Positions 1,085 to 58,843 of a stretch of DNA of 64,000 bases are shown here, in pieces; within the stretch, counting starts at the first letter, position 1; every line of letters begins with the position of its first letter. The stretch comes from Prochloraceae cyanobacterium. GTDB taxonomy: Bacteria > Cyanobacteriota > Cyanobacteriia > Cyanobacteriales > JASJDA01. The position numbers were made by a program, and so were the translations under genes. The notes beneath the pieces are model-generated. The model worked only from the letters and a program-made list of their open reading frames with translations, did no database searches and was not told the origin of the DNA. The stretch covers positions 4,000 through 67,999 of the forward strand of contig JASJDA010000031.1 of assembly GCA_030065755.1 (NCBI GenBank), given 5' to 3'.

Positions 1085-2431
1085 TTACAAAGCACCTGCA
1101 GCGGTTTTATCGAGAATCCCGCCACTTAAATGAGAAGTAATATTAATTGCTTGCAAGACTGGTAAACCTTCCGCACCTTCAGGATAGTCTATGACGCTAA
1201 CTGCACCATTACCCTGTTTAATATTCCAGAAATTGTCTGTTTTCAAGCCCATTAAATAACAAATAATTACCTTATTGATGGCATCGTGTGCTGTAATTAT
1301 GCCAGTTTGAGGCGATCGAGAATTAGAGTAGGTTCGTGCAATTTCATTCCAAGCAGCGATCGCTCTATCCCAAACCTGCTGTAAGTTTTCTCCTTCTGGC
1401 ATTTGTACTGTTTCTGGTGCTTCTTGCCATTTTTGCAGCATTCCAGGAAATTCTGCCTCTACTTCTTCTTTTAATTTCCCTTCCCAGAGTCCGTGACTAA
1501 TTTCTTCGAGTTGAGGGTTAGATTCTAACTTGACATTTGCATGATTTTCTAGGACTATTTCTGCTGTTTCTTTGGGACGCAATAAGTGACTAGTTACGGC
1601 AAAGTCTATTTGTACGTCTTTGAGGAATTCAGCAGCTTGTTGACCTTGTTTTTTGCCATTTTCATTGAGAGGAATATCTTTAATTCCTTGAAATCTAGAA
1701 ACCCGATTCCATTCTGTTTCGCCGTGACGTATTAATAATAAACGAGGGCCAGAATGGCGGGGACGAGGTGGAGGGAGAGGAATACCTAAGTGAGAGGTTT
1801 GATTTAAAGATTCTAACTCCACCGAGTCGCCAAAATCGCCAGTAAAATTGAGAACGTTGATGCAACAATTAGACTGCTGGATAGAATGGTAACGATCGAC
1901 TGGAACGCCAATAGCACTCATAATTAAACAGCGATTAATACCATTGTGCGCCACAATTAAAATTGTTTTACCCTGGTGTTGAGGGATAATTTCTTGCCAA
2001 AATTTCTGTGCTTGAGAGTAGAGAGAGGGGACGGGGAAATGTTCTTTTTCTCCTTCTGGAGTAGATAACACCATTTTGAATTCGCGAGGACGTTGTTTCC
2101 AACAGCGATACTCTTCGCCAAATTTTTCTTTAACCTCAGTCTTGGTTAAATTTTCCCACAGGGGTAAATCGATTTCTTGTAATTTCTCGTGGGTCTGTAA
2201 GCTAGGGGCGTTATTCAGACAGTCTCGAATAGTTTGGGCTGTTTGTTGCGCCCGTTTGAGGGGACTACAATAAAAGGCATCAAAACTGAGATTATTGAGA
2301 GCATCGCCTACCATTATGGCATCAGCACGACCTTTTTCGGTTAAGACTGATTCATCCGATCGACCTTGAATTTTTTGAAGGGCATTGTAGCTACTTTGTC
2401 CGTGACGGACAATAATTACACGAGTACTCAA
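1085..2431 (-). CDS. histidine phosphatase (phosphoglycerate mutase-like) family protein with two tandem domains
   Basis: Two RHG catalytic motifs are present, RHGQSSYN at the N-terminus and RHGETEWN at about residue 235. Each is followed by a histidine-phosphatase-like core (AHNG / AHDA). Confidence 0.85.
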   Translation of the reverse strand: MSTRVIIVRHGQSSYNALQKIQGRSDESVLTEKGRADAIMVGDALNNLSFDAFYCSPLKRAQQTAQTIRDCLNNAPSLQTHEKLQEIDLPLWENLTKTEVKEKFGEEYRCWKQRPREFKMVLSTPEGEKEHFPVPSLYSQAQKFWQEIIPQHQGKTILIVAHNGINRCLIMSAIGVPVDRYHSIQQSNCCINVLNFTGDFGDSVELESLNQTSHLGIPLPPPRPRHSGPRLLLIRHGETEWNRVSRFQGIKDIPLNENGKKQGQQAAEFLKDVQIDFAVTSHLLRPKETAEIVLENHANVKLESNPQLEEISHGLWEGKLKEEVEAEFPGMLQKWQEAPETVQMPEGENLQQVWDRAIAAWNEIARTYSNSRSPQTGIITAHDAINKVIICYLMGLKTDNFWNIKQGNGAVSVIDYPEGAEGLPVLQAINITSHLSGGILDKTAAGAL

Positions 2432-12865: not shown

Positions 12866-14320
12866 GTGAGGAAGTTTGTGTCAGCTAGAAAAATGCGTGA
12901 AAAAAGCCGTATAAAGCCCGATCGTAATGCTAGGCTCAAAAAACCAGATGGAAAGACAATAAAAGGCTCTCTAGTATTTATCTGGTTAGGTTTAACTGGA
13001 CTGGCAATGCTTTCAGCAGCAGCGGGAGCAATGCTTGCAGTATCTCTTTCATCCACCCCTCTGCAAAAACAAGAGTTAACTCCTGAAGAAAAAAAAGTAT
13101 TTAACCAAGACAAAACCGTCTCGCCAAATCCTCTACAAATACCTAAATTGAATCGAACGGTAAATATATTGGTTTTAGGTATCAAAGTTATTACATCCGA
13201 TCTCAAGCAAAACTATTCTGACACAGATCTTGGATATCAAGCTTTAGTTAACTCTTTCGAGGGTCTCAGCGATAGTATGCTGTTGCTGCGATTTGACCCT
13301 GAAAAAGAAAAATTGACCGTACTTTCTATTCCTCGCGATACTAGGGTCTACCTGAAAGGATACGGGATTAGAAAAATTAATTCTGCTAATTATATAAGTG
13401 GTCCTGCACTATCGACTCAAGCGGTAAGCGATCTCTTAGAAGGAGTATCTATAGATCGCTACGTGCGGATCAACGTACAAGGGGTGGAAAAACTGATCGA
13501 TGCCTTGGGTGGGGTGAACCTTTACGTACCCAAGGACATGAAGTATACCGACCACAGCCAACACCTCTACATCGATCTAAAAGAGGGGGAACAACACCTA
13601 GACGGCAATAAAGCAATGCAGTTTTTGCGCTTTCGCTACGATCGCTACGGGGATATTGGTCGGGTACAGCGACAACAAATGTTCTTCCGAGCCCTTCAAG
13701 AACAGGCTCTCAAGCCACGTACTGTCATGCGACTGCCAAAAATACTTTCTATTCTCGAATCCCACATCGATACTAACTTATCTGTAGAAGAGTTATTAGC
13801 TTTGGGTAATTTTGCATCCCATACTGATAGATCGGACGTACAAATGCTCATGGTGCCAGGGGACTACAACGGTAATGGCAAGAACGGGATTAGCTACTGG
13901 CTGCCCAGTTATCGCCGCATTCGAGAAATGATGGCGGAGCATTTCAATGTGGGAGAGAGTCATTCTGAGTGGGAGGTTCCTGACCCAGCCAAGGTAAGGA
14001 TCGCTATTCAAGATAGTACTGGAGATTCCGAAGCAGTGCAAACTGTTGTTACTCGCCTGCAAGAAGCTGGCTACCGCAGAATTTATTTGGGCGATCGCTG
14101 GAACGAACCCCTGGATTTGACTAGGATTATCGCTCAAAAAGGAGATGACGGATCTGCAGCAGTTATTCGCGTCAATTTAGGAATAGGAGAAGTCTTGGTA
14201 GAAAGTACTGGCGTGTTGGGTTCTGACGTAACAATAGCATTGGGCGAGGACTGGCGAGAACTGCTAAATTCTAGTAAATACCTTTCACCAGTACCTGAAT
14301 CTTCCTTTTCTCAAGAATAA
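12866..14320 (+). CDS. LCP (LytR-CpsA-Psr) family cell-envelope phosphotransferase
   Basis: An N-terminal TM anchor is followed by the LCP core (DSMLLLRFDP, SIPRDT, RFRYDRYGDIGRVQRQQ). A C-terminal LytR_C-like domain is present. Confidence 0.8.
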   Translation: MRKFVSARKMREKSRIKPDRNARLKKPDGKTIKGSLVFIWLGLTGLAMLSAAAGAMLAVSLSSTPLQKQELTPEEKKVFNQDKTVSPNPLQIPKLNRTVNILVLGIKVITSDLKQNYSDTDLGYQALVNSFEGLSDSMLLLRFDPEKEKLTVLSIPRDTRVYLKGYGIRKINSANYISGPALSTQAVSDLLEGVSIDRYVRINVQGVEKLIDALGGVNLYVPKDMKYTDHSQHLYIDLKEGEQHLDGNKAMQFLRFRYDRYGDIGRVQRQQMFFRALQEQALKPRTVMRLPKILSILESHIDTNLSVEELLALGNFASHTDRSDVQMLMVPGDYNGNGKNGISYWLPSYRRIREMMAEHFNVGESHSEWEVPDPAKVRIAIQDSTGDSEAVQTVVTRLQEAGYRRIYLGDRWNEPLDLTRIIAQKGDDGSAAVIRVNLGIGEVLVESTGVLGSDVTIALGEDWRELLNSSKYLSPVPESSFSQE

Positions 14321-14363
14321 ATCCCTATTTCTCGCCCCCGAAGATCGCGCCGCCATTAATCAA

Positions 14364-15812
14364 TTAATCAATTGGCACAAAATCGTAACCACTAGAAAAA
14401 TTATTAGACTTAACGAGCCTTACTAATTGAACTTTTGACTTGCGATCGCCCCAAGGGAAAAACTCGATTTTACCTGATGCTCCAGTGATGGAAAAATCTG
14501 GGTTAGATAGTTCTTCTTTGATCCCATCGCGAGTAGGATTGATTTCTATGGCGGCAATCAAAGATTTTGTAGCATCGTAGGCTAAAATTGTGCGCCAGCT
14601 TACTCGGGAAGTTCGCCATAGCTTTTTAGACAAAGAGCTAAAGTCTGGCTCCATAACTCGATCGATATGCCAAGGTATTGCTATTATCATCCCCTCTGAA
14701 AATTGAGGATGAATTGTTAAAGTTTTAGGGGTATAAACATCATCTCCTCCTAGTAACGGGAGCTTTTTTCTGTTGACACTAACCACCTGAAGTGCTTCAT
14801 CTATTGTGCTAACACTGGCTGCTAACATTAAGACTTGTGCGCCTTTTTCATTTGCCTCATTTACTTTTTTATAAGCATCAAAGCCAGATTTAGAAAAGTT
14901 AAATTCAGCAACAATATCTCCTCCTTTTGCAAATACAGAAATGCTGAATTCAGATTTGAGGGAACGGCTATATCCACTCTTAGCATTGAAAAAAACAGCG
15001 ACTTTTTTTTGTCCCATCTCGTCCAACATATAGTCGGCTAATGCTTTTGCTGCAATTGAATCGCTCGGAACAGTGCGAAAAACGTAGTCGCTAAAGTCTG
15101 ATAATTTAACTGAGGTACTAACGGGGGAAATGGCAACTAACTTTTCTTTATCGTAGATTTCTCCTGCTGCTAAAGTAGTATCGCTAGCATAATGACCCAC
15201 TACTCCTAGGATGTCCTTATTTTTGGTAAACTCTATGGCAATTTTCTGGGCAATTTCTGGATTTTCTCGATCGTCAGCTAGCAATACTTTTAGAGGTATT
15301 CCGTTAATTTTCTCCTGTGAATTATTTATTTTATATTGAGCTTGAGCTACCCCTCTCATCATCTCCAAAGCCCCATTTGGATCGCTACTAATTGGCACGG
15401 ACAAAGCGATAGTATAGTGTCGCTCTTGACCTATGCGTGCATTGTTTAAATAAATTCTAGTCTCGGGTTCATTTTTATAGCGATCGAGTGCTTTTTGAAA
15501 ATGATTTGCCGCTTCCTCAAAGTTGCCAGCAGCCATTGCTCGAACCCCTTTCTGTTTTTGCGAGCTTTTTTTTTCTTTTATAAGTATTTTTTCCCCGAAA
15601 CTAATTTGTTGTTTTACTGCTACATTACTATCAGTTTTCGAGTCTTTTTTAATTGGAGTATTTTTAACAATTTCTTTAACAACTTCTGAATTTAAAGTTT
15701 GATTTTCAGAAGTTGGAGTTAGGTTCGGCATTAGTGAAAGACTAACTGCCAATAAAATTCCCGCAATAAACAGAATAATAAAAAGTATAATAATTTCATT
15801 TCTTTTTGACAT
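14364..15812 (-). CDS. membrane-anchored type I periplasmic-binding-protein (Leu/Ile/Val-binding-like ABC substrate-binding) protein
   Basis: An N-terminal TM helix and a TPR-like segment are followed by a LivK-like fold (GVVGHYASDTT, AISPVSTS, VAVFFN). It lies directly downstream of the kinase gene on the same strand. Confidence 0.7.
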   Translation of the reverse strand: MSKRNEIIILFIILFIAGILLAVSLSLMPNLTPTSENQTLNSEVVKEIVKNTPIKKDSKTDSNVAVKQQISFGEKILIKEKKSSQKQKGVRAMAAGNFEEAANHFQKALDRYKNEPETRIYLNNARIGQERHYTIALSVPISSDPNGALEMMRGVAQAQYKINNSQEKINGIPLKVLLADDRENPEIAQKIAIEFTKNKDILGVVGHYASDTTLAAGEIYDKEKLVAISPVSTSVKLSDFSDYVFRTVPSDSIAAKALADYMLDEMGQKKVAVFFNAKSGYSRSLKSEFSISVFAKGGDIVAEFNFSKSGFDAYKKVNEANEKGAQVLMLAASVSTIDEALQVVSVNRKKLPLLGGDDVYTPKTLTIHPQFSEGMIIAIPWHIDRVMEPDFSSLSKKLWRTSRVSWRTILAYDATKSLIAAIEINPTRDGIKEELSNPDFSITGASGKIEFFPWGDRKSKVQLVRLVKSNNFSSGYDFVPID

Positions 15813-20262: not shown

Positions 20263-20895
20263 GATTGTTTTTTCTCAGTCCTCAAGTTAATAAGTTTCAT
20301 TACTTCTTAATTGACCTACAATTCCTTAGCTGGGTTCCTAAAATCGTTATTGTTGGCAGACAATAACAAGGTAAACTAGCTGGAATTGCTTACTGTGTAA
20401 ATGTTTCCAGGAACTATTATAAAAAACTAATGGTTCTCGAGCAAGAACTTAGAGGTCAAATGAACAATAACTACTCTTTAATATCCTGTCTGAGTCTAAC
20501 GCAATATGGCATGAGCATAATTACTTAATTTTAGTGATTATTTTTTTATATGAATCTACGTTACTTAACTTAAGGGAGTAAACAGGAGCTTTTCAGAACT
20601 TTATTCAGAAAAAAAAGTAGTTTACCAAAACTTTGTTTTATTTCTCGGCATATTCGGTCTTTATCAACAACTAAGATAATAAGTAAAGAAATGGAGAAGT
20701 TATTAGCAATATTTGGTTTATTAGATGAAGATTTAATGAAATAGGTTTAATAGGTTTATGCATTATAGGGGTTGGAATCATTTCTTTGAGTTCAGGTGTT
20801 GGATTGCAAATATCTTGGGGTGTAGTGCTAATTTCGATCGCCACCCTATCGACTAGCCTTTACTCGGTGATGCAAAAACCTTTGCTTGTTAAATA

Positions 20896-21105
20896 GGGCT
20901 TGCTGAAAAAGTAGCGATCGCGAATCTAGCAGCCACACAGCTTGAAAATAGTAGGTTTAGGAATTGATCTTAAAAACAAGCTAGGCGTTTACTGAACAAG
21001 TGCAAGGTTTTTGAGCCTCATACCCCCTAAAACCTTGCACTTATTTTACGAAAAAATGCTTGAAACCTTTATCTAGAGAGGATTACAGCTTTATTCAGCA
21101 AGCTC
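20896..21105. mobile_element. MITE copy 1 (about 210 bp) inside the EamA pseudogene
   Basis: The terminal inverted repeats are GGGCTTGCTGAAAAAG ... CTTTATTCAGCAAGCTC. It is flanked by the direct duplication TAAATA (20890-20895 and 21106-21111). Removing the element and one duplicate rejoins ...PLLVKYSPIQ.... It is alignable by eye to the copy at 23877-24087. Confidence 0.75.
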
Positions 21106-21324
21106 TAAATATAGTCCTATTCAGTTTACTAGCTACGCTATCCGGACAGGGCGCTATTCTTGTTTTTTCTAAGACTTCAAGCGATTATATCGGCTATTGA
21201 TGCACTTTTTGCTCCAACATTAGCAGTGATATATATGGGTGTGTTTCCAGGTGTAATTGCTTATATTGCCTGGTCTTACGTCTTATCTCAAATTCCAGCT
21301 TCACAAGCGGGTAGTTATTTAGCT

Positions 21325-21791
21325 TAATCCGCAGAAGCCTCACATCTGTACCTGCTAAGGTCAGCGTGAGATGAATGCGTGCGAGTTGACGAAAGTCTTA
21401 TACTCTCGATGCGTAGCAAGTGAGTTTAAGACATGGAGGAAACGAGCAATCAACTTAATTTGAGAAACAGGAAAGTTCATATAACCAATATAATTGCAAG
21501 AGTTCTAGGCGATGTATAATATTTGTAATCCTCAAGATATGAGAATAGCCTCATCGGATTGAACCATTGAAAATGAAATAAACTATAGGGTTGTAACCAG
21601 AAGTCCTAGAAAACTCGGTGGAAGCGTAAAAGTTTATTTCGAGCCTAGGTGAGTAGCATTTGGCAACTACAAGAACTCTGCGGAGGGGCATCTCGTGGAG
21701 TATAAAAAAGCTCGCTTTATATCCTATGCAGAAAGCAGGAGTTGGCGAGAAGCCTACACCGTAATCTCTGATTCGGTGTAGGAGTATGTCA
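21325..21791 (+). mobile_element. 467-bp protein-less derivative of the IS200/IS605-type (tnpB) element family
   Basis: The left end (TAATCCGCAGAAGCCTCAC...GCGTGAGATGAATGCG) and right end (GAAGCC-TACACCG-loop-CGGTGTA-GGAGTATGTCA) parallel the ends of the tnpB element at 57340-57757... in full, 57340-58757. The same decamer precedes both (TTATTTAGCT here, TTATTTATCT there). Deleting exactly 21325-21791 restores the EamA frame (GSYLA|PLIPVV). Confidence 0.55.
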
Positions 21792-21980
21792 CCACTAATT
21801 CCTGTAGTAGCATTAGCGATCGCGTGGCTGTGGCTTGGTGAAATACTTACCCTAATTTCCTTGCTTGGTGGAGCTGTGGTTTTAACTGGCATTCTACTCG
21901 TTAATAAACGTAGAGAGTAGATTGAACTTTAGGGATCCGCGAAGCAGGCAGATCTGAGCGAAAACCTCTTGTAATTTTCC

Positions 21981-23876: not shown

Positions 23877-24087
23877 GGGCTTGCTGAAAAAGAAGCGATC
23901 GCCAATCTAGCCGCTACACAGCTTGAAAGATATTAGGTCTGTCGTTTAGTTTTAAAATTCAACCAGGGCGATCGTGACAAAGTGCAAGCTTTTTGGGACT
24001 ATCTAGCTCGAAAACCTTGCACTTATTCGCTCGAAAAATGCGTTGAAAGTATTATCTAGACTGTGTTTCAGTTTTTTCAGCAAGCCC
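23877..24087. mobile_element. MITE copy 2 (211 bp)
   Basis: The TIRs are GGGCTTGCTGAAAAAG ... TTTTTTCAGCAAGCCC. It is flanked by the direct duplication TAGATA (23871-23876 and 24088-24093). An internal HIP1 site and the hairpin GTGCAAG(G/C)TTTT...AAAACCTTGCAC are shared with copy 1. Confidence 0.75.
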
Positions 24088-24229: not shown

Positions 24230-24755
24230 TTGGAGCAAGTAAAAGATCTTCTATAATACATACAGTCTTTGATGTAGGACTCGCATAGATGAGACAGAAC
24301 AAAAGGGTCAGTAGCGCGTCGAAACCGTGAAGTGACGTCCTCGAAAGTCCATAGCTAGCAAAAAAGCATCTGTACCTTGCAAAAAAGCATCTGTACCTTG
24401 CAAAAAAGCATCTGTACCTTGACAACAGAATCATGGGTTGTGACGAGAAAAAAGCGGATGCGACCCACGCCGAGGTTCCCTCGGTGTGGAAAGCGCACCA
24501 AGCATCTGTCGTTGCGTAAAAGGTTCTCAGTTTCAAGATGAGAGAAATCCAGAATTTCTTGCTTCTGCGGTGGGACATCTCGTAAGAAGTAAAATAAAAT
24601 GCCTGTGGAGACGGTCTGTCGGGGTCAGTGCCTTTGGGAGAATACATATTCGTTTGTACCAAAGTGGGCTAGATAAGAGTCTTTGAGCCAGGAATTTCAA
24701 ATCGTGAGGTTTGAAGCCCCGTCCAAGCGCTAAGCGCAGGTCGGGGAGAATGTCA
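24230..24755 (+). pseudogene. decayed 3' part of a tnpB gene with its right-end (omega-RNA-type) hairpin
   Basis: The frame SICRCVKGSQFQDERNPEFLASAVGH retains a zinc-finger/RuvC-III-like trace. Compare CNQCG...DRDINAGKNILAAGLAV in the intact copy. The 13-mer ATCGTGAGGTTTG (24701-24713) is identical to the one at 58711-58723. It is followed by GAAGCCCCG...CGGGGAGAATGTCA, ending at 24755. Confidence 0.5.
24359..24421. repeat. perfect 21-bp tandem triplication
   Basis: CAAAAAAGCATCTGTACCTTG repeated 3 times, inside the tnpB remnant. A fourth degenerate copy (AAGCATCTGTCGTTG) lies about 75 bp downstream. Confidence 0.9.
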
Positions 24756-26231
24756 CAACACTTCTGCGTCTTTAAACTTCCCTTTTTGATGCGCTTTTGC
24801 AGACTCCCCACAAGTGCGAGGAGTGGGAAATACTTTACCTGGGTTAGCTAAGCCTTTAGGGTTAAAAACCTGGCGCACCCATTTCATAGTTTCTAAGTCA
24901 GTATCGCTAAACATATCGGGCATAAAACAATTTTTATCGGAACCGATACCGTGTTCTCCAGAAATACTTCCTCCTGCTTTAACGCAGAGTTTGAGAATTT
25001 CTCCTCCTATCTCTTCAACTGTTTCTAAGGCTCCTTCGACAGAATTATCGTAAAGAATTAGAGGATGAAGATTTCCGTCACCTGCGTGGAAAACATTAGC
25101 AATCCTATAGCCGTATCGATCGCTTAAAGCATTAATTTCTTTAAGTACGCTGGCTAACTGAGTTCGAGGAATAACCCCATCTTGAACGAAATAATCGGGG
25201 CTAATATGTCCAGCCGCAGCGAAAGCTGCTTTGCGACCTTTCCACATTTTAGAGCGAGTTTCGGGGTCATTTGCTGAGGTAACATTTCTCGCCCCGTTAT
25301 CTCGGCAAATTTCTCCTACTCGCTTTTTATTAGCTGCTACTTCTACCTCTAAACCGTCCAATTCCACAAGTAGAATTGCACCAGCATCGCGAGGATAACA
25401 ACCCGTAGCTACCACATCTTCTACAGCATTGATGCTGAGATTATCCATTATTTCCATGCCAGCGGGAATAATGCCAGAACCAATAATACCAGCAACACTA
25501 ACAGCAGCCTCTTCAATGCTAGAAAAATCAGCCAGGACAACGCAAATTGATTCTGGGGTTTTCAGGATCCGCAGGGTAATTTCTGTAGCAATACCGATAG
25601 TCCCTTCAGAACCGACAAATAAACCAGTTAGGTCATATCCTGGCATTTCTGGAACCATTCCGCCCAAATCGACAATAGAACCGTCGGGAATAACTATTTT
25701 TAAACCGATGACGTGATTAGTAGTTACCCCGTATTTAAGACAGTGAACCCCCCCAGAATTTTCCGCCACATTGCCGCCGATCGAACATATAATTTGACTG
25801 GAAGGATCGGGAGCATAATAAAATCCTGCGCCGCTAACTGCTTGAGTTACCCAATTGTTAATTACTCCAGGCTCAACTGTAATGCGCTGATTTTCTAGGT
25901 CAATATCGAGGATTTTTTTCATCCTAGCAGTGACGATGAGAACGCAATCTTCTACTGGTAAAGCCCCACCAGACAAACCTGTTCCCGCACCTCTAGCAAC
26001 CCATTTAACAGAATTGCGATCGCATATCTTTACTACTTCTGCTACTTGTTCGGTAGTCCGAGGTAATACGACAACGGCGGGACGTTGGCGATAGCTGGTT
26101 AAACCGTCGCATTCGTAAGTGAGTAGTTCTTCTTTGCGTCTTACTACTCCATCTTTTCCAACTACCTTTTCAAATTGTTTGACGATCGGTTTCCACTTAT
26201 TGTCTGTTTTGTTAAAAAAGTTTGCCAGCAT
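24753..26231 (-). CDS. glcD: glycolate oxidase subunit GlcD (FAD-linked oxidase)
   Basis: PCMH-type FAD-binding domain (VVLPRTTEQVAEVV...ARGAGTGLSGGA) and a C-terminal FAD-oxidase domain (GSISGEHGIG). Length 492 aa. Confidence 0.9.
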   Translation of the reverse strand: MLANFFNKTDNKWKPIVKQFEKVVGKDGVVRRKEELLTYECDGLTSYRQRPAVVVLPRTTEQVAEVVKICDRNSVKWVARGAGTGLSGGALPVEDCVLIVTARMKKILDIDLENQRITVEPGVINNWVTQAVSGAGFYYAPDPSSQIICSIGGNVAENSGGVHCLKYGVTTNHVIGLKIVIPDGSIVDLGGMVPEMPGYDLTGLFVGSEGTIGIATEITLRILKTPESICVVLADFSSIEEAAVSVAGIIGSGIIPAGMEIMDNLSINAVEDVVATGCYPRDAGAILLVELDGLEVEVAANKKRVGEICRDNGARNVTSANDPETRSKMWKGRKAAFAAAGHISPDYFVQDGVIPRTQLASVLKEINALSDRYGYRIANVFHAGDGNLHPLILYDNSVEGALETVEEIGGEILKLCVKAGGSISGEHGIGSDKNCFMPDMFSDTDLETMKWVRQVFNPKGLANPGKVFPTPRTCGESAKAHQKGKFKDAEVL

Positions 26232-38997: not shown

Positions 38998-39004
38998 ATT
39001 TTGA

Positions 39005-39074
39005 GGGAATAGGGAACAGGGAATAGGGAATAGGGAATAGGGAATAGGGAATAGGGAATAGGGAATAGGGAACA
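39005..39074. repeat. tandem heptamer array (GGGAATA/GGGAACA) x10
   Basis: Ten contiguous 7-nt units counted by hand, immediately downstream of uppS. Confidence 0.9.
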
Positions 39075-39092
39075 GAGGAAAGGTTAAAGTAT

Positions 39093-39806
39093 TTAAAAAC
39101 TCGTACCTAAAAACCACTCATATCCTTCTTTAAACTTTCTCTTTCCATCATTTTCAACAATACTTCCATGAGCCATAATTACTCTCTTAAAATCCCAATT
39201 AAGTATTTTTTGAACTGAGTTTTTTACTCGCTCTTTTTCTTTGGTTGCAATTTTCTCTAAGAATGAAGGTCTGAGCTTTTTATAACTTCCGATCGCTTGA
39301 CTTGCTAGCCTCGTCCTTAAGGGGAAAGTTTCATCAAAATTAAAAGCTGTATCGGTTAAAATCAAGCTTCTACTTTCCTTATGAAAGAAAACAAATTCGT
39401 TGAATTTTAAGGGACCACTAAAATCGATTATAACTCGAACACCTTCAAATAATAAATATTCAACTTCTTCCCAAATACTTTTTTCGTCTTTATTCATTAT
39501 TCGATCGCTCTTTAAATCAGGTCTTTTCGATTCTAATCCTGGCGCAATCCAAAGTTTTGCTTCACGATAAATAGCCTTAAATTCAGAAACAAAAAGGTGA
39601 TGAAAAAGATTGGGAGCAATGATAAACCCGACATTACCAATCTCATTTATTTCTTGAATTGTTTTCTCATCTACTTGAATTGGAGAAGTAACTATTAACT
39701 CGCCACTAGATAGACGAATAATTGTCATTCTCGTTCCAATTTCAAGTTGCCAAAATTTTAACGGTTGTTCGTCAACCCAAATGTTTGTGTCAATTTTTCT
39801 CAACAT
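39093..39806 (-). CDS. DUF4336-like (metallo-beta-lactamase-fold-like) protein
   Basis: MLRKIDTNIWVDEQPLKFWQLEIGTRMTIIRL..GELIVTSPI resembles the DUF4336 family as I recall it. The first 22 codons of the track ORF (to 39872) translate a GGGGAGCA repeat and are probably not coding. Confidence 0.5.
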   Translation of the reverse strand: MLRKIDTNIWVDEQPLKFWQLEIGTRMTIIRLSSGELIVTSPIQVDEKTIQEINEIGNVGFIIAPNLFHHLFVSEFKAIYREAKLWIAPGLESKRPDLKSDRIMNKDEKSIWEEVEYLLFEGVRVIIDFSGPLKFNEFVFFHKESRSLILTDTAFNFDETFPLRTRLASQAIGSYKKLRPSFLEKIATKEKERVKNSVQKILNWDFKRVIMAHGSIVENDGKRKFKEGYEWFLGTSF

Positions 39807-57330: not shown

Positions 57331-57339
57331 TATTTATCT

Positions 57340-58757
57340 TCTTCCCGCGAGAATACCCACGCTTTCAGCGTGTGGATGAATCGCAGGGCAGCCCTTTTAG
57401 TATTATCTTTAATCTTACAGAAAGCTATGTTAAAATGTAAGTTGTAAATAACTAACTATTGTAAGGGATGTTTTTTATTTTTAATTAGGGAACCCTTTTT
57501 CAAATAATTATTTTCCGTAAATGACCGAACGCGCCTACAAATATCGGTTTTACCCAACTCCAGAGCAAGAAAATCTCTTGCGACGGACGATAGGTTGCGT
57601 TCGTTTGGTTTACAACAAAGCTTTGGCAACTAGAACTGAAGCATGGTACTCCAAAAAAGAGAGGGTCGGCTACAAAGAAACCTCTAGTTTTTTGACTGCT
57701 TGGAAAAAGACTACTGAACTTAACTTTCTTAACGAGGTAAGCTCTGTACCCTTGCAGCAATGCCTTAGAAATCTGCAAAAAGCATTTGCTAACTTCTGGG
57801 GAAAGAGAGCTAGATATCCTCGGTTTAAGAAAAAGCGCTCGGGGGGGTCGGCTGAGTTTACCAAGTCTGCATTTAAATGGAAAGATGGTAAATTGTGGCT
57901 TGCTAAGTGTAAGGAACCACTCAATATAGTCTGGTCTAGATATTTGCCTGATGCTTGTGCCCCATCTACAGTAACAGTCAAATTCGAGCCATCGGGAAGA
58001 TGGTATATTTCTTTGCTGATAAATGACCGAACCATTGAGAAATTCCCACCAACTGACAAGAAAGTTGGCATTGATGTAGGTATTTCTCGATTGATTAGTA
58101 CCAGCGACGGGGATTTGATAGCTAATCCCAAGCATTTCAATCGGCTGTATCAAAAGCTTAAAAGAGCGCAAAAGGTATTGAGTCGGAAGACCAAAGGCTC
58201 TAATAATCGACATAAAGCGCTACAGATAGTAGCTAAGATACACACTCAAATCAAAGATGCTCGTACCGATTTCCTGCACAAGTTGACTACTTCGTTGGTT
58301 AGAGAAAATAGCCTTATTGCTATTGAAGACTTGGGGGTTAGAAACATGGTTAAACTCCGCAAGTTGGCTCGGTCTATATCCGATGCTGCTTGGGGGGAGA
58401 TGTTTCGTCAACTTGAGTATAAGTGTGAGTGGTACGGGCGAGAATTGGTTAAAATTGACCGATTCTATCCCAGCAGTAAAAGATGTAATCAATGTGGTTT
58501 TGTAGTCGCTCGATTGCCCCTCGACGTTCGCAGTTGGGATTGCCCTAGCTGTGGAACTACAGGCATAGACCGCGACATCAATGCTGGAAAAAATATCTTG
58601 GCTGCAGGGCTTGCAGTTTCTGTCTGTGGAGCGGACATAAGACCTGATAACCATAGTGTTAAAGGGCAGTTGCGAAAAACTCGTACATCGAGAAGGAAAC
58701 AGAAACCCAGATCGTGAGGTTTGGGAATCCCGCGTCAAGGAGCGCGGGAGGATGTCA
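57340..58757 (+). mobile_element. IS200/IS605-family tnpB-only element (IS1341-like), 1418 bp by inferred boundaries
   Basis: The left end has a subterminal hairpin CCACGC-TTTCA-GCGTGTGG followed by GATGAATCGC. The right end is GAATCCCGCG-TCAAGGAG-CGCGGGAGGATGTCA (58725-58757). Boundaries were set by comparison with the 21325-21791 copy. No tnpA is present. Confidence 0.7.
57521..58717 (+). CDS. tnpB: RNA-guided DNA endonuclease TnpB (IS605 OrfB family)
   Basis: N-terminal YKYRFYPTPEQENLLRRTIGCVRLVYN (OrfB HTH). The RuvC triad contexts are GIDVGI, IAIEDL and DRDINAGKNI. The zinc ribbon is CNQCG...CPSCG. Confidence 0.92.
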   Translation: MTERAYKYRFYPTPEQENLLRRTIGCVRLVYNKALATRTEAWYSKKERVGYKETSSFLTAWKKTTELNFLNEVSSVPLQQCLRNLQKAFANFWGKRARYPRFKKKRSGGSAEFTKSAFKWKDGKLWLAKCKEPLNIVWSRYLPDACAPSTVTVKFEPSGRWYISLLINDRTIEKFPPTDKKVGIDVGISRLISTSDGDLIANPKHFNRLYQKLKRAQKVLSRKTKGSNNRHKALQIVAKIHTQIKDARTDFLHKLTTSLVRENSLIAIEDLGVRNMVKLRKLARSISDAAWGEMFRQLEYKCEWYGRELVKIDRFYPSSKRCNQCGFVVARLPLDVRSWDCPSCGTTGIDRDINAGKNILAAGLAVSVCGADIRPDNHSVKGQLRKTRTSRRKQKPRS

Positions 58758-58773
58758 AGTAAGATAAGTTCCA
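58560..58773 (+). ncRNA. putative omega-RNA (right-end RNA) scaffold plus flank-derived guide; the 5' limit is a guess
   Basis: In characterised TnpB systems, the guide RNA overlaps the tnpB 3' end and the right end and reads into the flank. Here the conserved terminal hairpin ends at 58757, and the 16 nt beyond it are AGTAAGATAAGTTCCA. Confidence 0.35.
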
Positions 58774-58800: not shown

Positions 58801-58835
58801 TTCTGACTTCTGACTTCTGACTTCTGACTTCTGAC
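58801..58835. repeat. tandem heptamer (TTCTGAC) x5
   Basis: Five perfect units counted by hand, ending 8 nt before the cbiD ATG. Confidence 0.9.
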
Positions 58836-58843
58836 TTCGTATA

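Follow-up and report, generated by a model that had tools for sequence, protein, structure and literature searches.

The Locus and Its Features

The DNA analyzed here, a single cyanobacterial stretch of 64 kb referred to below as the window, carries a 470-bp insertion within the remains of an EamA/DMT transporter gene. In agreement with the first-pass annotation, which had called the insertion protein-less, its longest ORF measures only 39 aa; the non-coding sequence is structured (z -2.5). The features of the locus, together with two further elements of the window, are given below with the basis of each assignment.

20744..21322, + strand: upstream part of the EamA/DMT transporter pseudogene (flanking ORF pieces, EamA assignment)
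21318..21322, + strand: TTTAG, host target motif (TAM), directly 5′ of the left end (family flanks; also present in the ortholog L171)
21323..21792, + strand: whole element, read as a protein-less IS200/IS605-family derivative, 470 bp (EamA ortholog junction and conserved right end)
21323..21380, + strand: left end, comprising CTTAATCC, an outer stem, GAAGC/ATGAA internal loops, an inner hairpin, and GATGAAT (DNA fold)
21494..21520, + strand: possible internal promoter, TTGCAA, 15 nt, TATAAT (weak, read from the sequence)
21671..21792, + strand: omega-RNA-like 3′ module and right end, three helices followed by AGTATGTCAC (match to the covariance model R1)
21753..21782, + strand: right-end subterminal hairpin CCTACACCG...CGGTGTAGG, preceded by GAAGCC (DNA fold, compensatory changes)
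21793..21812, + strand: flank, putative guide part of the RNA, CACTAATTCCTGTAGTAGCA (by analogy with the known TnpB mechanism; PMC10055086, PMC8612924)
21793..21920, + strand: downstream part of the EamA pseudogene (flanking ORF pieces, ortholog alignment)
24264..24756, + strand: second protein-less omega-RNA-type remnant of another subfamily, with a right end and no recognisable left end (R1, 35.7 bits)
57338..58758, + strand: intact tnpB-only element (left boundary by analogy only; right end by R1 alignment and a Stanieria relative)

The EamA/DMT gene (20744-21920), in whose frame the insert lies in sense orientation, is a pseudogene independently of the insert, as its N-terminal domain is missing and frameshifts are found at ~21140-21200. 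It is also interrupted by a 210-bp MITE at 20896-21105 with a TAAATA target duplication. A second copy of this MITE, at 23877-24087 with a TAGATA duplication, is ~91% identical to the first at the compared end; both copies have GGGCTTGCTGAAAAAG as terminal inverted repeats and target duplications of 6 bp.

Boundaries, Target Motif, and Ends

The insertion had previously been placed at 21325-21791 (467 nt), partly because removal of exactly these nucleotides appeared to restore the EamA frame. The frame does remain open, but the restoration is not exact. The joined protein was searched against a large protein collection and the orthologs were aligned; at the junction, 10/10 of them read SYL[A/S]-LIP, whereas removal of 467 nt gives SYLA-P-LIP, with an extra codon. 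Likewise, the DNA of the uninterrupted ortholog L171 reads GGTAGTTATTTAGCGTTGATTCC (containing TATTTAGCGTTGATTCC), one codon fewer than the junction predicted from the 467-nt boundaries. Therefore, the insert is 470 nt long; the earlier annotation had set the left boundary 2 nt and the right boundary 1 nt too far inward. Removal of 21323-21792 leaves ...TATTTAG|CACTAATTCC..., which is translated as Y-L-A-L-I-P, the sequence of the orthologs. Because a C stands at both positions, removal of 21324-21793 yields the identical product. The choice between the two follows from ~30 copies elsewhere, which end in ...GTATGTCAC and are followed by a variable base, even when the copies are otherwise identical; the element thus corresponds to 21323-21792, with TTTAG on its left. 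Removal of 467, 468, or 469 nt, or of 21322-21791, was rejected, as these cuts add a Pro, shift the frame, introduce a stop, or read Leu-Pro-Leu where Leu-Ala-Leu is expected.

The insert is flanked by ...TTATTTAG and CACTAATT..., and neither TTTAG nor CACTA is repeated on the opposite side. The proposal of insertion beside a specific motif without target duplication was thus borne out, although the motif itself proved shorter than the flanking decamer first described as conserved. In 17 genome copies found via a 3′ motif, the 5′ flank is TTTAG in 15, CTTAG in one, and ATTAG in one, with no conservation further upstream. An independent set of 104 distinct metagenome flanks, collected via the left-end pattern, has T at position -5 in 73 cases and is unconstrained at earlier positions. 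Since the family flanks are not conserved further upstream, what the decamers of the two window elements have in common outside TTTA(G/T) is largely coincidental. Empty sites were sought as well: the neighboring GST-like protein, looked up as a lead to a strain with an empty site, is not on record, and no empty sites of the 29 other copies were found among the loci collected.

Subterminal imperfect hairpins, each preceded by GAAGCC, are present at both ends of the 470-bp element, and terminal inverted repeats are absent (CTTAATCC... versus ...GTATGTCAC). Folded as DNA, the left end (21323-21380) reaches -10 kcal/mol (z -2.9), its outer stem being formed by 21330-21333 with 21376-21379 and its inner hairpin by 21339-21370. 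The right end (21745-21792) reaches -11 kcal/mol (z -4.6), and compensatory changes occur in 5/10 pairs of its helix across copies; this covariation is equally compatible with a hairpin in DNA and a helix in RNA. The end sequences originally quoted for 21325-21791 and for the tnpB element at 57340-58757 are present in the window as written. In single-stranded DNA folds, the left ends of both window elements form an inner hairpin that a GAAGC/ATGAA internal loop separates from an outer stem, and both right ends form a hairpin followed by GGAGNATGTCA, with z-scores of -2.7 to -4.6 over the end folds. Family copies, like full tnpB elements, have left ends of the same architecture.

Between its ends, the element offers few landmarks. 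An Rfam 15 cmscan of 21250-21870 returned zero matches, at gathering thresholds as well as at E up to 10. A scan for consensus promoters and terminators found nothing on the + strand of the element; the promoter-like site at 21494-21520 was not reported because its spacer is too short, and comparable TA-rich boxes are aligned with it in other copies. Finally, a tblastn comparison of the window TnpB with the short element and with the second remnant (24264-24756) detected no TnpB coding remnant in either.

A 3′ Module Shared With tnpB Genes

The omega-RNAs of TnpB are encoded at the 3′ end of tnpB, up to the right end of the element (PMC8612924, PMC10055086). A covariance model, R1, was built from an alignment of the last ~122 nt of 29 copies from other genomes, with the window sequence excluded. 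The structure comprises 33 pairs in three helical regions, and 95.6% of the cells are paired across the 29 copies. Ten pairs show changes on both sides, and 0/500 shuffles reach the values of this structure; in a control in which the partners were slid by 1-3 columns, pairing was 33-47%. Further compensatory variants are added by the tnpB-borne copies. Covariation, which the first-pass annotation had proposed as a check on the 3′ region, is present among the 29 copies; the intact tnpB element of the window, named there for comparison, matches R1 only weakly (15.1 bits).

Applied to the window, R1 matches 21671-21792 along all 122 of its positions and ends on C 21792, with a score of 111 bits (E about 7e-26). 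The same model recognizes the 3′ ends of three annotated tnpB genes, namely those of L049 on a plasmid of Oscillatoria nigro-viridis (WP_015179696.1, 90.6 bits), L050 on plasmid A of Trichormus variabilis (WP_011316417.1, 77.1 bits), and L051 on plasmid pNSMS101 of Nostoc sp. MS1 (WP_224095444.1, 45.1 bits). At annotated tnpB genes, the matches overlap the stop codons and reach the right end, and in L049 and L050 the tnpB ORF extends through the first two helices. For other protein-less copies, the scores are 70-144 bits. Elsewhere in the window, R1 gives 35.7 bits at 24558-24756, in the second remnant, and 15.1 bits (E 0.05) at 58676-58758, the 3′ end of the window tnpB. The core of the first-pass annotation, which derived the insertion from an IS200/IS605 tnpB element as a PATE-type copy encoding no protein, is thereby upheld: R1 links the 3′ 122 nt to the 3′ ends of tnpB genes. 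BLAST detects no similarity between the conserved interiors of other subfamilies and the part of the window copy that lies upstream of 21663. Judged by sequence comparison, only the last 122 nt of the window copy are securely omega-RNA-like.

The second remnant (24264-24756) is 84% identical over 215 nt to the Xenococcaceae locus L044, the similarity starting downstream of the left-end hairpin of L044. Its right end reads ...GGAGAATGTCAC, and a 21-bp tandem repeat is present in three copies at 24352-24421.

Related Elements in Other Genomes

The 470-bp element and the non-coding stretch ending at 24756 have the 20-mer TCTGCGGNGGGNCATCTCGT in common. Scanning one genome per species with this internal 20-mer retrieved 47 loci, ~33 of them cyanobacterial; the number of non-cyanobacterial loci is close to chance expectation. 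At ~30 of the cyanobacterial loci, GGAGTATGTCAC occurs ~114 nt after the 20-mer, beyond which the flanks diverge, and several genomes hold three family copies each. The shared ends predicted in the first-pass annotation are thus found (~30 copies, ...GTATGTCAC), although the full flanking decamer is not. By tblastn, no tnpB was detected beside the 20-mer loci except at L019, where tnpB lies ~570 nt upstream of the motif. Left ends of the form (T)TTAG|CT[ACT]AA..AGAAGCC, hairpin, GATGAAT are located 430-700 nt upstream of the 3′ motif, with no ORF between, and the layout of the window copy is identical.

The left-end pattern was further used to scan metagenomes, yielding 115 stretches, which were classified by tblastn combined with R1. 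In this collection, the left-end type heads full tnpB elements (end-to-end length 1557-1919 nt), protein-less copies (267-591 nt), and deletion intermediates with C-terminal TnpB coding remnants (L060, L061, L068, L082, and L126). Seven loci (L051, L063, L065, L083, L116, L125, and L145) combine this left end with a tnpB gene and a right end matching R1. L051 is complete, running from cTTAG|CTGAATCAAAAAGAAGCC through the hairpin, GATGAATTTTTGGGC, a leader of ~300 nt, and tnpB to ...GGAGTACGTCAC. In L099, the left-end type precedes a divergent Y1 tnpA of 151 aa (Pfam Y1_Tnp, 131 bits) and then the start of tnpB; L099 therefore ties the ends of the family to a TnpA. The L099 element (13818-14550) appears to be autonomous, with tnpA at 13932-14387 on the minus strand and the tnpB start at 14449, and its contig ends before the right end. 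The left end of the window element is ~81% identical to those of the full tnpB elements L083 and L116. Together with the Y1 tnpA element headed by the same left-end type, this identity bears out the earlier suggestion that ends recognized by TnpA have been kept. The ends, the target motif, and the 3′ module place the 470-bp element in one family with tnpA- and tnpB-bearing elements.

Inside one protein-less subfamily, a 24-nt piece of tnpB coding sequence is kept at the same relative position. Along with the series of full elements, intermediates, and protein-less copies, this piece supports an origin by internal deletion. As the copy at 21323-21792 contains no recognisable tnpB coding remnant, it is the related intermediates that suggest its own origin by deletion of the tnpB body. 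The 104 distinct 5′ flanks place copies at more than 100 different sites, and mobility in the past is evident from the many separate insertion sites in other genomes. Copies abound in Nostocales, and the family is very common among filamentous cyanobacteria. A blastn search of PLSDB plasmids with the window element gave no match, and the more typical copy L040 reached tnpB-bearing relatives.

Several copies have additional features. In L019 (Microcoleus sp. Pol10D4, ~1833-2393, minus strand), ~570 nt separate tnpB, whose product is 85% identical to the TnpB of L049, from the remaining 3′ module and right end. This segment encodes a Cys-rich ORF of 187 aa with an H-N-H-like motif, the last codons of which enter the first RNA helix. 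Derivation of the family interior from this ORF was considered and rejected, as the ORF has no relatives in any collected locus and no Pfam match. Small GC-rich repeats are nested inside the RNA region of L018, L036, L043, L047, L017, and L044; the scaffold therefore either tolerates secondary insertions or is inactivated by them. In L050, a hypothetical ORF of 130 aa (905-1297) lies directly upstream of tnpB, and a bare TTAGCTAATC is found 35 nt before the tnpB start. Because this TTAGCTAATC lacks the usual left-end hairpin, the left end of L050 may be truncated or different.

The tnpB Element of the Window and Alternative Explanations

The window tnpB (ORF 57521-58717, 398 aa) encodes the Pfam domains HTH_OrfB_IS605, OrfB_IS605, and a Cas12f1-like TNB domain. 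Its element ends in ...GGATGTCAA, as does a Stanieria relative whose flanks differ beyond this point; together with the model alignment, this relative moves the right end from 58757, as first annotated, to 58758. Relatives occur on plasmids of Stanieria, Nostoc, Calothrix, and Trichormus. The neighboring CbiJ gene was found elsewhere only on a near-identical ENA metagenome contig (ERZ23486730), which also carries the insertion. Soon after the right end, at ~58802-58840, lies the heptanucleotide tandem repeat (TGACTTC)x5; another, (AGGGAAT)n, is located at 39004-39094.

The first-pass annotation regarded the short insertion as a derivative of this particular tnpB element. The resemblance of the ends is real: both window elements have GAAKCC, a hairpin, and GATGAAT on the left and GAAKCC, a hairpin, and GGAGNATGTCA on the right. 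Their flanks are similar (TTTAG versus TTTAT), and R1 locates the 3′ end of the window tnpB at the right place. The parentage does not hold up as well. In MAFFT and local alignments of their DNA, the two match only at short end motifs, and the 15.1 bits (E 0.05) of the window tnpB contrast with 111 for the short element and 45-91 for the other TnpB clade. The TnpB proteins of that clade (L049, L050, and L051) are 52-62% identical to one another and only 28-32% identical to the window TnpB. As this is the clade with matching ends, the window tnpB element is a distant cousin rather than the parent, and direct descent of the insertion from it, with service by its TnpB, is very improbable. No TnpB of the L049/L051 clade is encoded within the 64-kb window, and no tnpA was found there in a search with a TnpA query. 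Two other origins deserve hardly any weight. A self-splicing intron or IStron-like element that spares the host mRNA could explain a structured, non-coding insert (z -2.5) in sense orientation within a coding frame, but the Rfam search, which covers group I and II introns, was empty up to E of 10; moreover, the host gene is broken elsewhere, and copies in other genomes have unrelated flanks, IS605-type ends, and homology to tnpB 3′ ends. An ordinary MITE with terminal inverted repeats, moved by a DDE transposase, would likewise be short, non-coding, and multi-copy, and true MITEs lie nearby at 20896-21105 and 23877-24087. However, the element has neither terminal inverted repeats nor a target-site duplication, and its asymmetric ends are common to tnpA and tnpB elements. 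For the same two absences, the "MITE" of the original label "PATE/MITE-type" is strictly the wrong word, while "PATE" stands.

The insertion at 21323-21792 is thus very probably a non-autonomous IS200/IS605-family transposon, derived from a TnpB-encoding element that lost tnpB and kept its omega-RNA region and ends. A separate matter is whether this copy is still alive. With a host gene that is a multiply damaged pseudogene, carrying a MITE and frameshifts besides, the copy could be an old, immobile fossil: a non-autonomous IS605 derivative by origin that is now untranscribed and functionless. The diverged interior, the failure to find a consensus promoter, and the absence of partner genes from the window point in the same direction. 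Against decay, both end hairpins are intact, as are the TTTAG flank and each of the three helices in the 3′ module, and the score of 111 bits falls within the range of the family's other protein-less copies. A dead copy is accordingly conceivable, though it appears the less likely state.

Proposed Mechanism

In the preferred reading, a non-autonomous derivative of a TnpB-encoding element, sequence comparison indicates what was probably kept from the ancestor, namely the left-end hairpin region and at least the last 120 nt, which in full relatives extend as far as the right end and overlap tnpB at its 3′ end; the promoter region was possibly retained as well. By analogy with the described systems, a Y1 TnpA encoded elsewhere would recognize both subterminal hairpins on single-stranded DNA and cleave 3′ of TTTAG at the left end and 3′ of ...GTCAC at the right end, allowing the element to move to a new TTTAG without duplication. 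Read-through transcription would produce an omega-RNA whose guide is the DNA immediately to the right of the element (21793 onward). Joined to TTTAG, the putative guide at 21793-21812 would correspond to the rebuilt empty-site target. Bound to this RNA, a compatible TnpB from elsewhere could cut an empty site (TTTAG plus a match to the guide), and repair from, or recombination with, a sister copy would then restore the element. The copy in the window would, on this model, be transcribed and used in trans by TnpB and TnpA, and might be mobile to the present day.

Relation to Known Systems and Significance

PATEs were first described in haloarchaea, and IS605 and IS608 of H. pylori serve as the mechanistic model for IS605-type elements. 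Standalone omega-RNA loci and PATE-like IS200/IS605 elements acting in trans have already been described (Altae-Tran et al., 2021, cited through PMC10691335; Meers et al., 2023, PMC10055086). Like these, the 470-bp element is gene-less and multi-copy, has end hairpins in common with tnpB and tnpA elements, carries an omega-RNA region beside its right end, and is inserted by a short motif without duplication. Unlike them, it is part of a cyanobacterial family whose members sit beside TTTAG and terminate in ...GTCAC; this family is known from sequence alone and occurs in Nostoc, Calothrix, Tolypothrix, Cylindrospermum, Desmonostoc, Trichormus, Microcoleus, Leptolyngbyaceae, and Chroococcales. 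With the tnpB-only IS1341/IS891/IS1136 group (L049, L050, and L051), it shares the 3′ module, right end, and TTAG flank, and with L051 also the left-end type; however, those elements have a tnpB ORF of ~400 aa that overlaps the module, whereas the window element has lost tnpB entirely. The IS605-type L099, with both tnpA and tnpB, has the same left-end type (TTAG|CTAAAACAAAAAGAAGCC, hairpin, GATGAATTTTTGGGC) but encodes its own transposase; as the contig covers just its left part, the likeness concerns the left end. The window tnpB element, similar in overall end architecture, in the logic of its orientation, and in its T-rich flank (TTTAT), differs in its TnpB clade, its right end (...GGATGTCAA), and its R1 score of 15 bits.

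The kind of element is therefore already known, and the 470-bp element adds a member to it. So far as literature searches show, the family is undescribed: no cyanobacterial description of it was found, and full-text searches with family sequence strings returned only unrelated PCR primers. For annotation, the analysis explains a structured 470-bp insert that had none and provides exact boundaries, the TTTAG target, and a usable covariance model; better annotation of repeat-rich cyanobacterial genomes, and of pseudogenes caused by such repeats, is expected. In addition, a possible candidate for genome-editing tests is the TnpB clade with the TTTAG motif, together with its compact 3′ module of 122 nt. 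The current understanding of the mechanism is left unchanged.

In the series from tnpA-tnpB elements through tnpB-only elements and intermediates to RNA-only copies, the parts kept last are the two ends and the guide-RNA region. Copies from many genera have a common interior and a common breakpoint, which fits a further and tentative suggestion, namely that the protein-less elements, instead of arising only by chance deletion time after time, form a long-lived lineage consisting only of guide RNA, which spreads across cyanobacterial genera by means of the TnpA and TnpB of others. In such a lineage, the RNA scaffold may now evolve without coding constraint. Fitting the same suggestion, the first-helix variant TCTGCGGNGGGNCATCTCGT was never met immediately at a tnpB ORF end in the genome scan, a sample biased by the fact that the pattern itself selected this variant. 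If such a lineage does exist, which is at present an uncertain prospect, it would provide each TnpB with more homing sites, or compete for the protein with tnpB elements.
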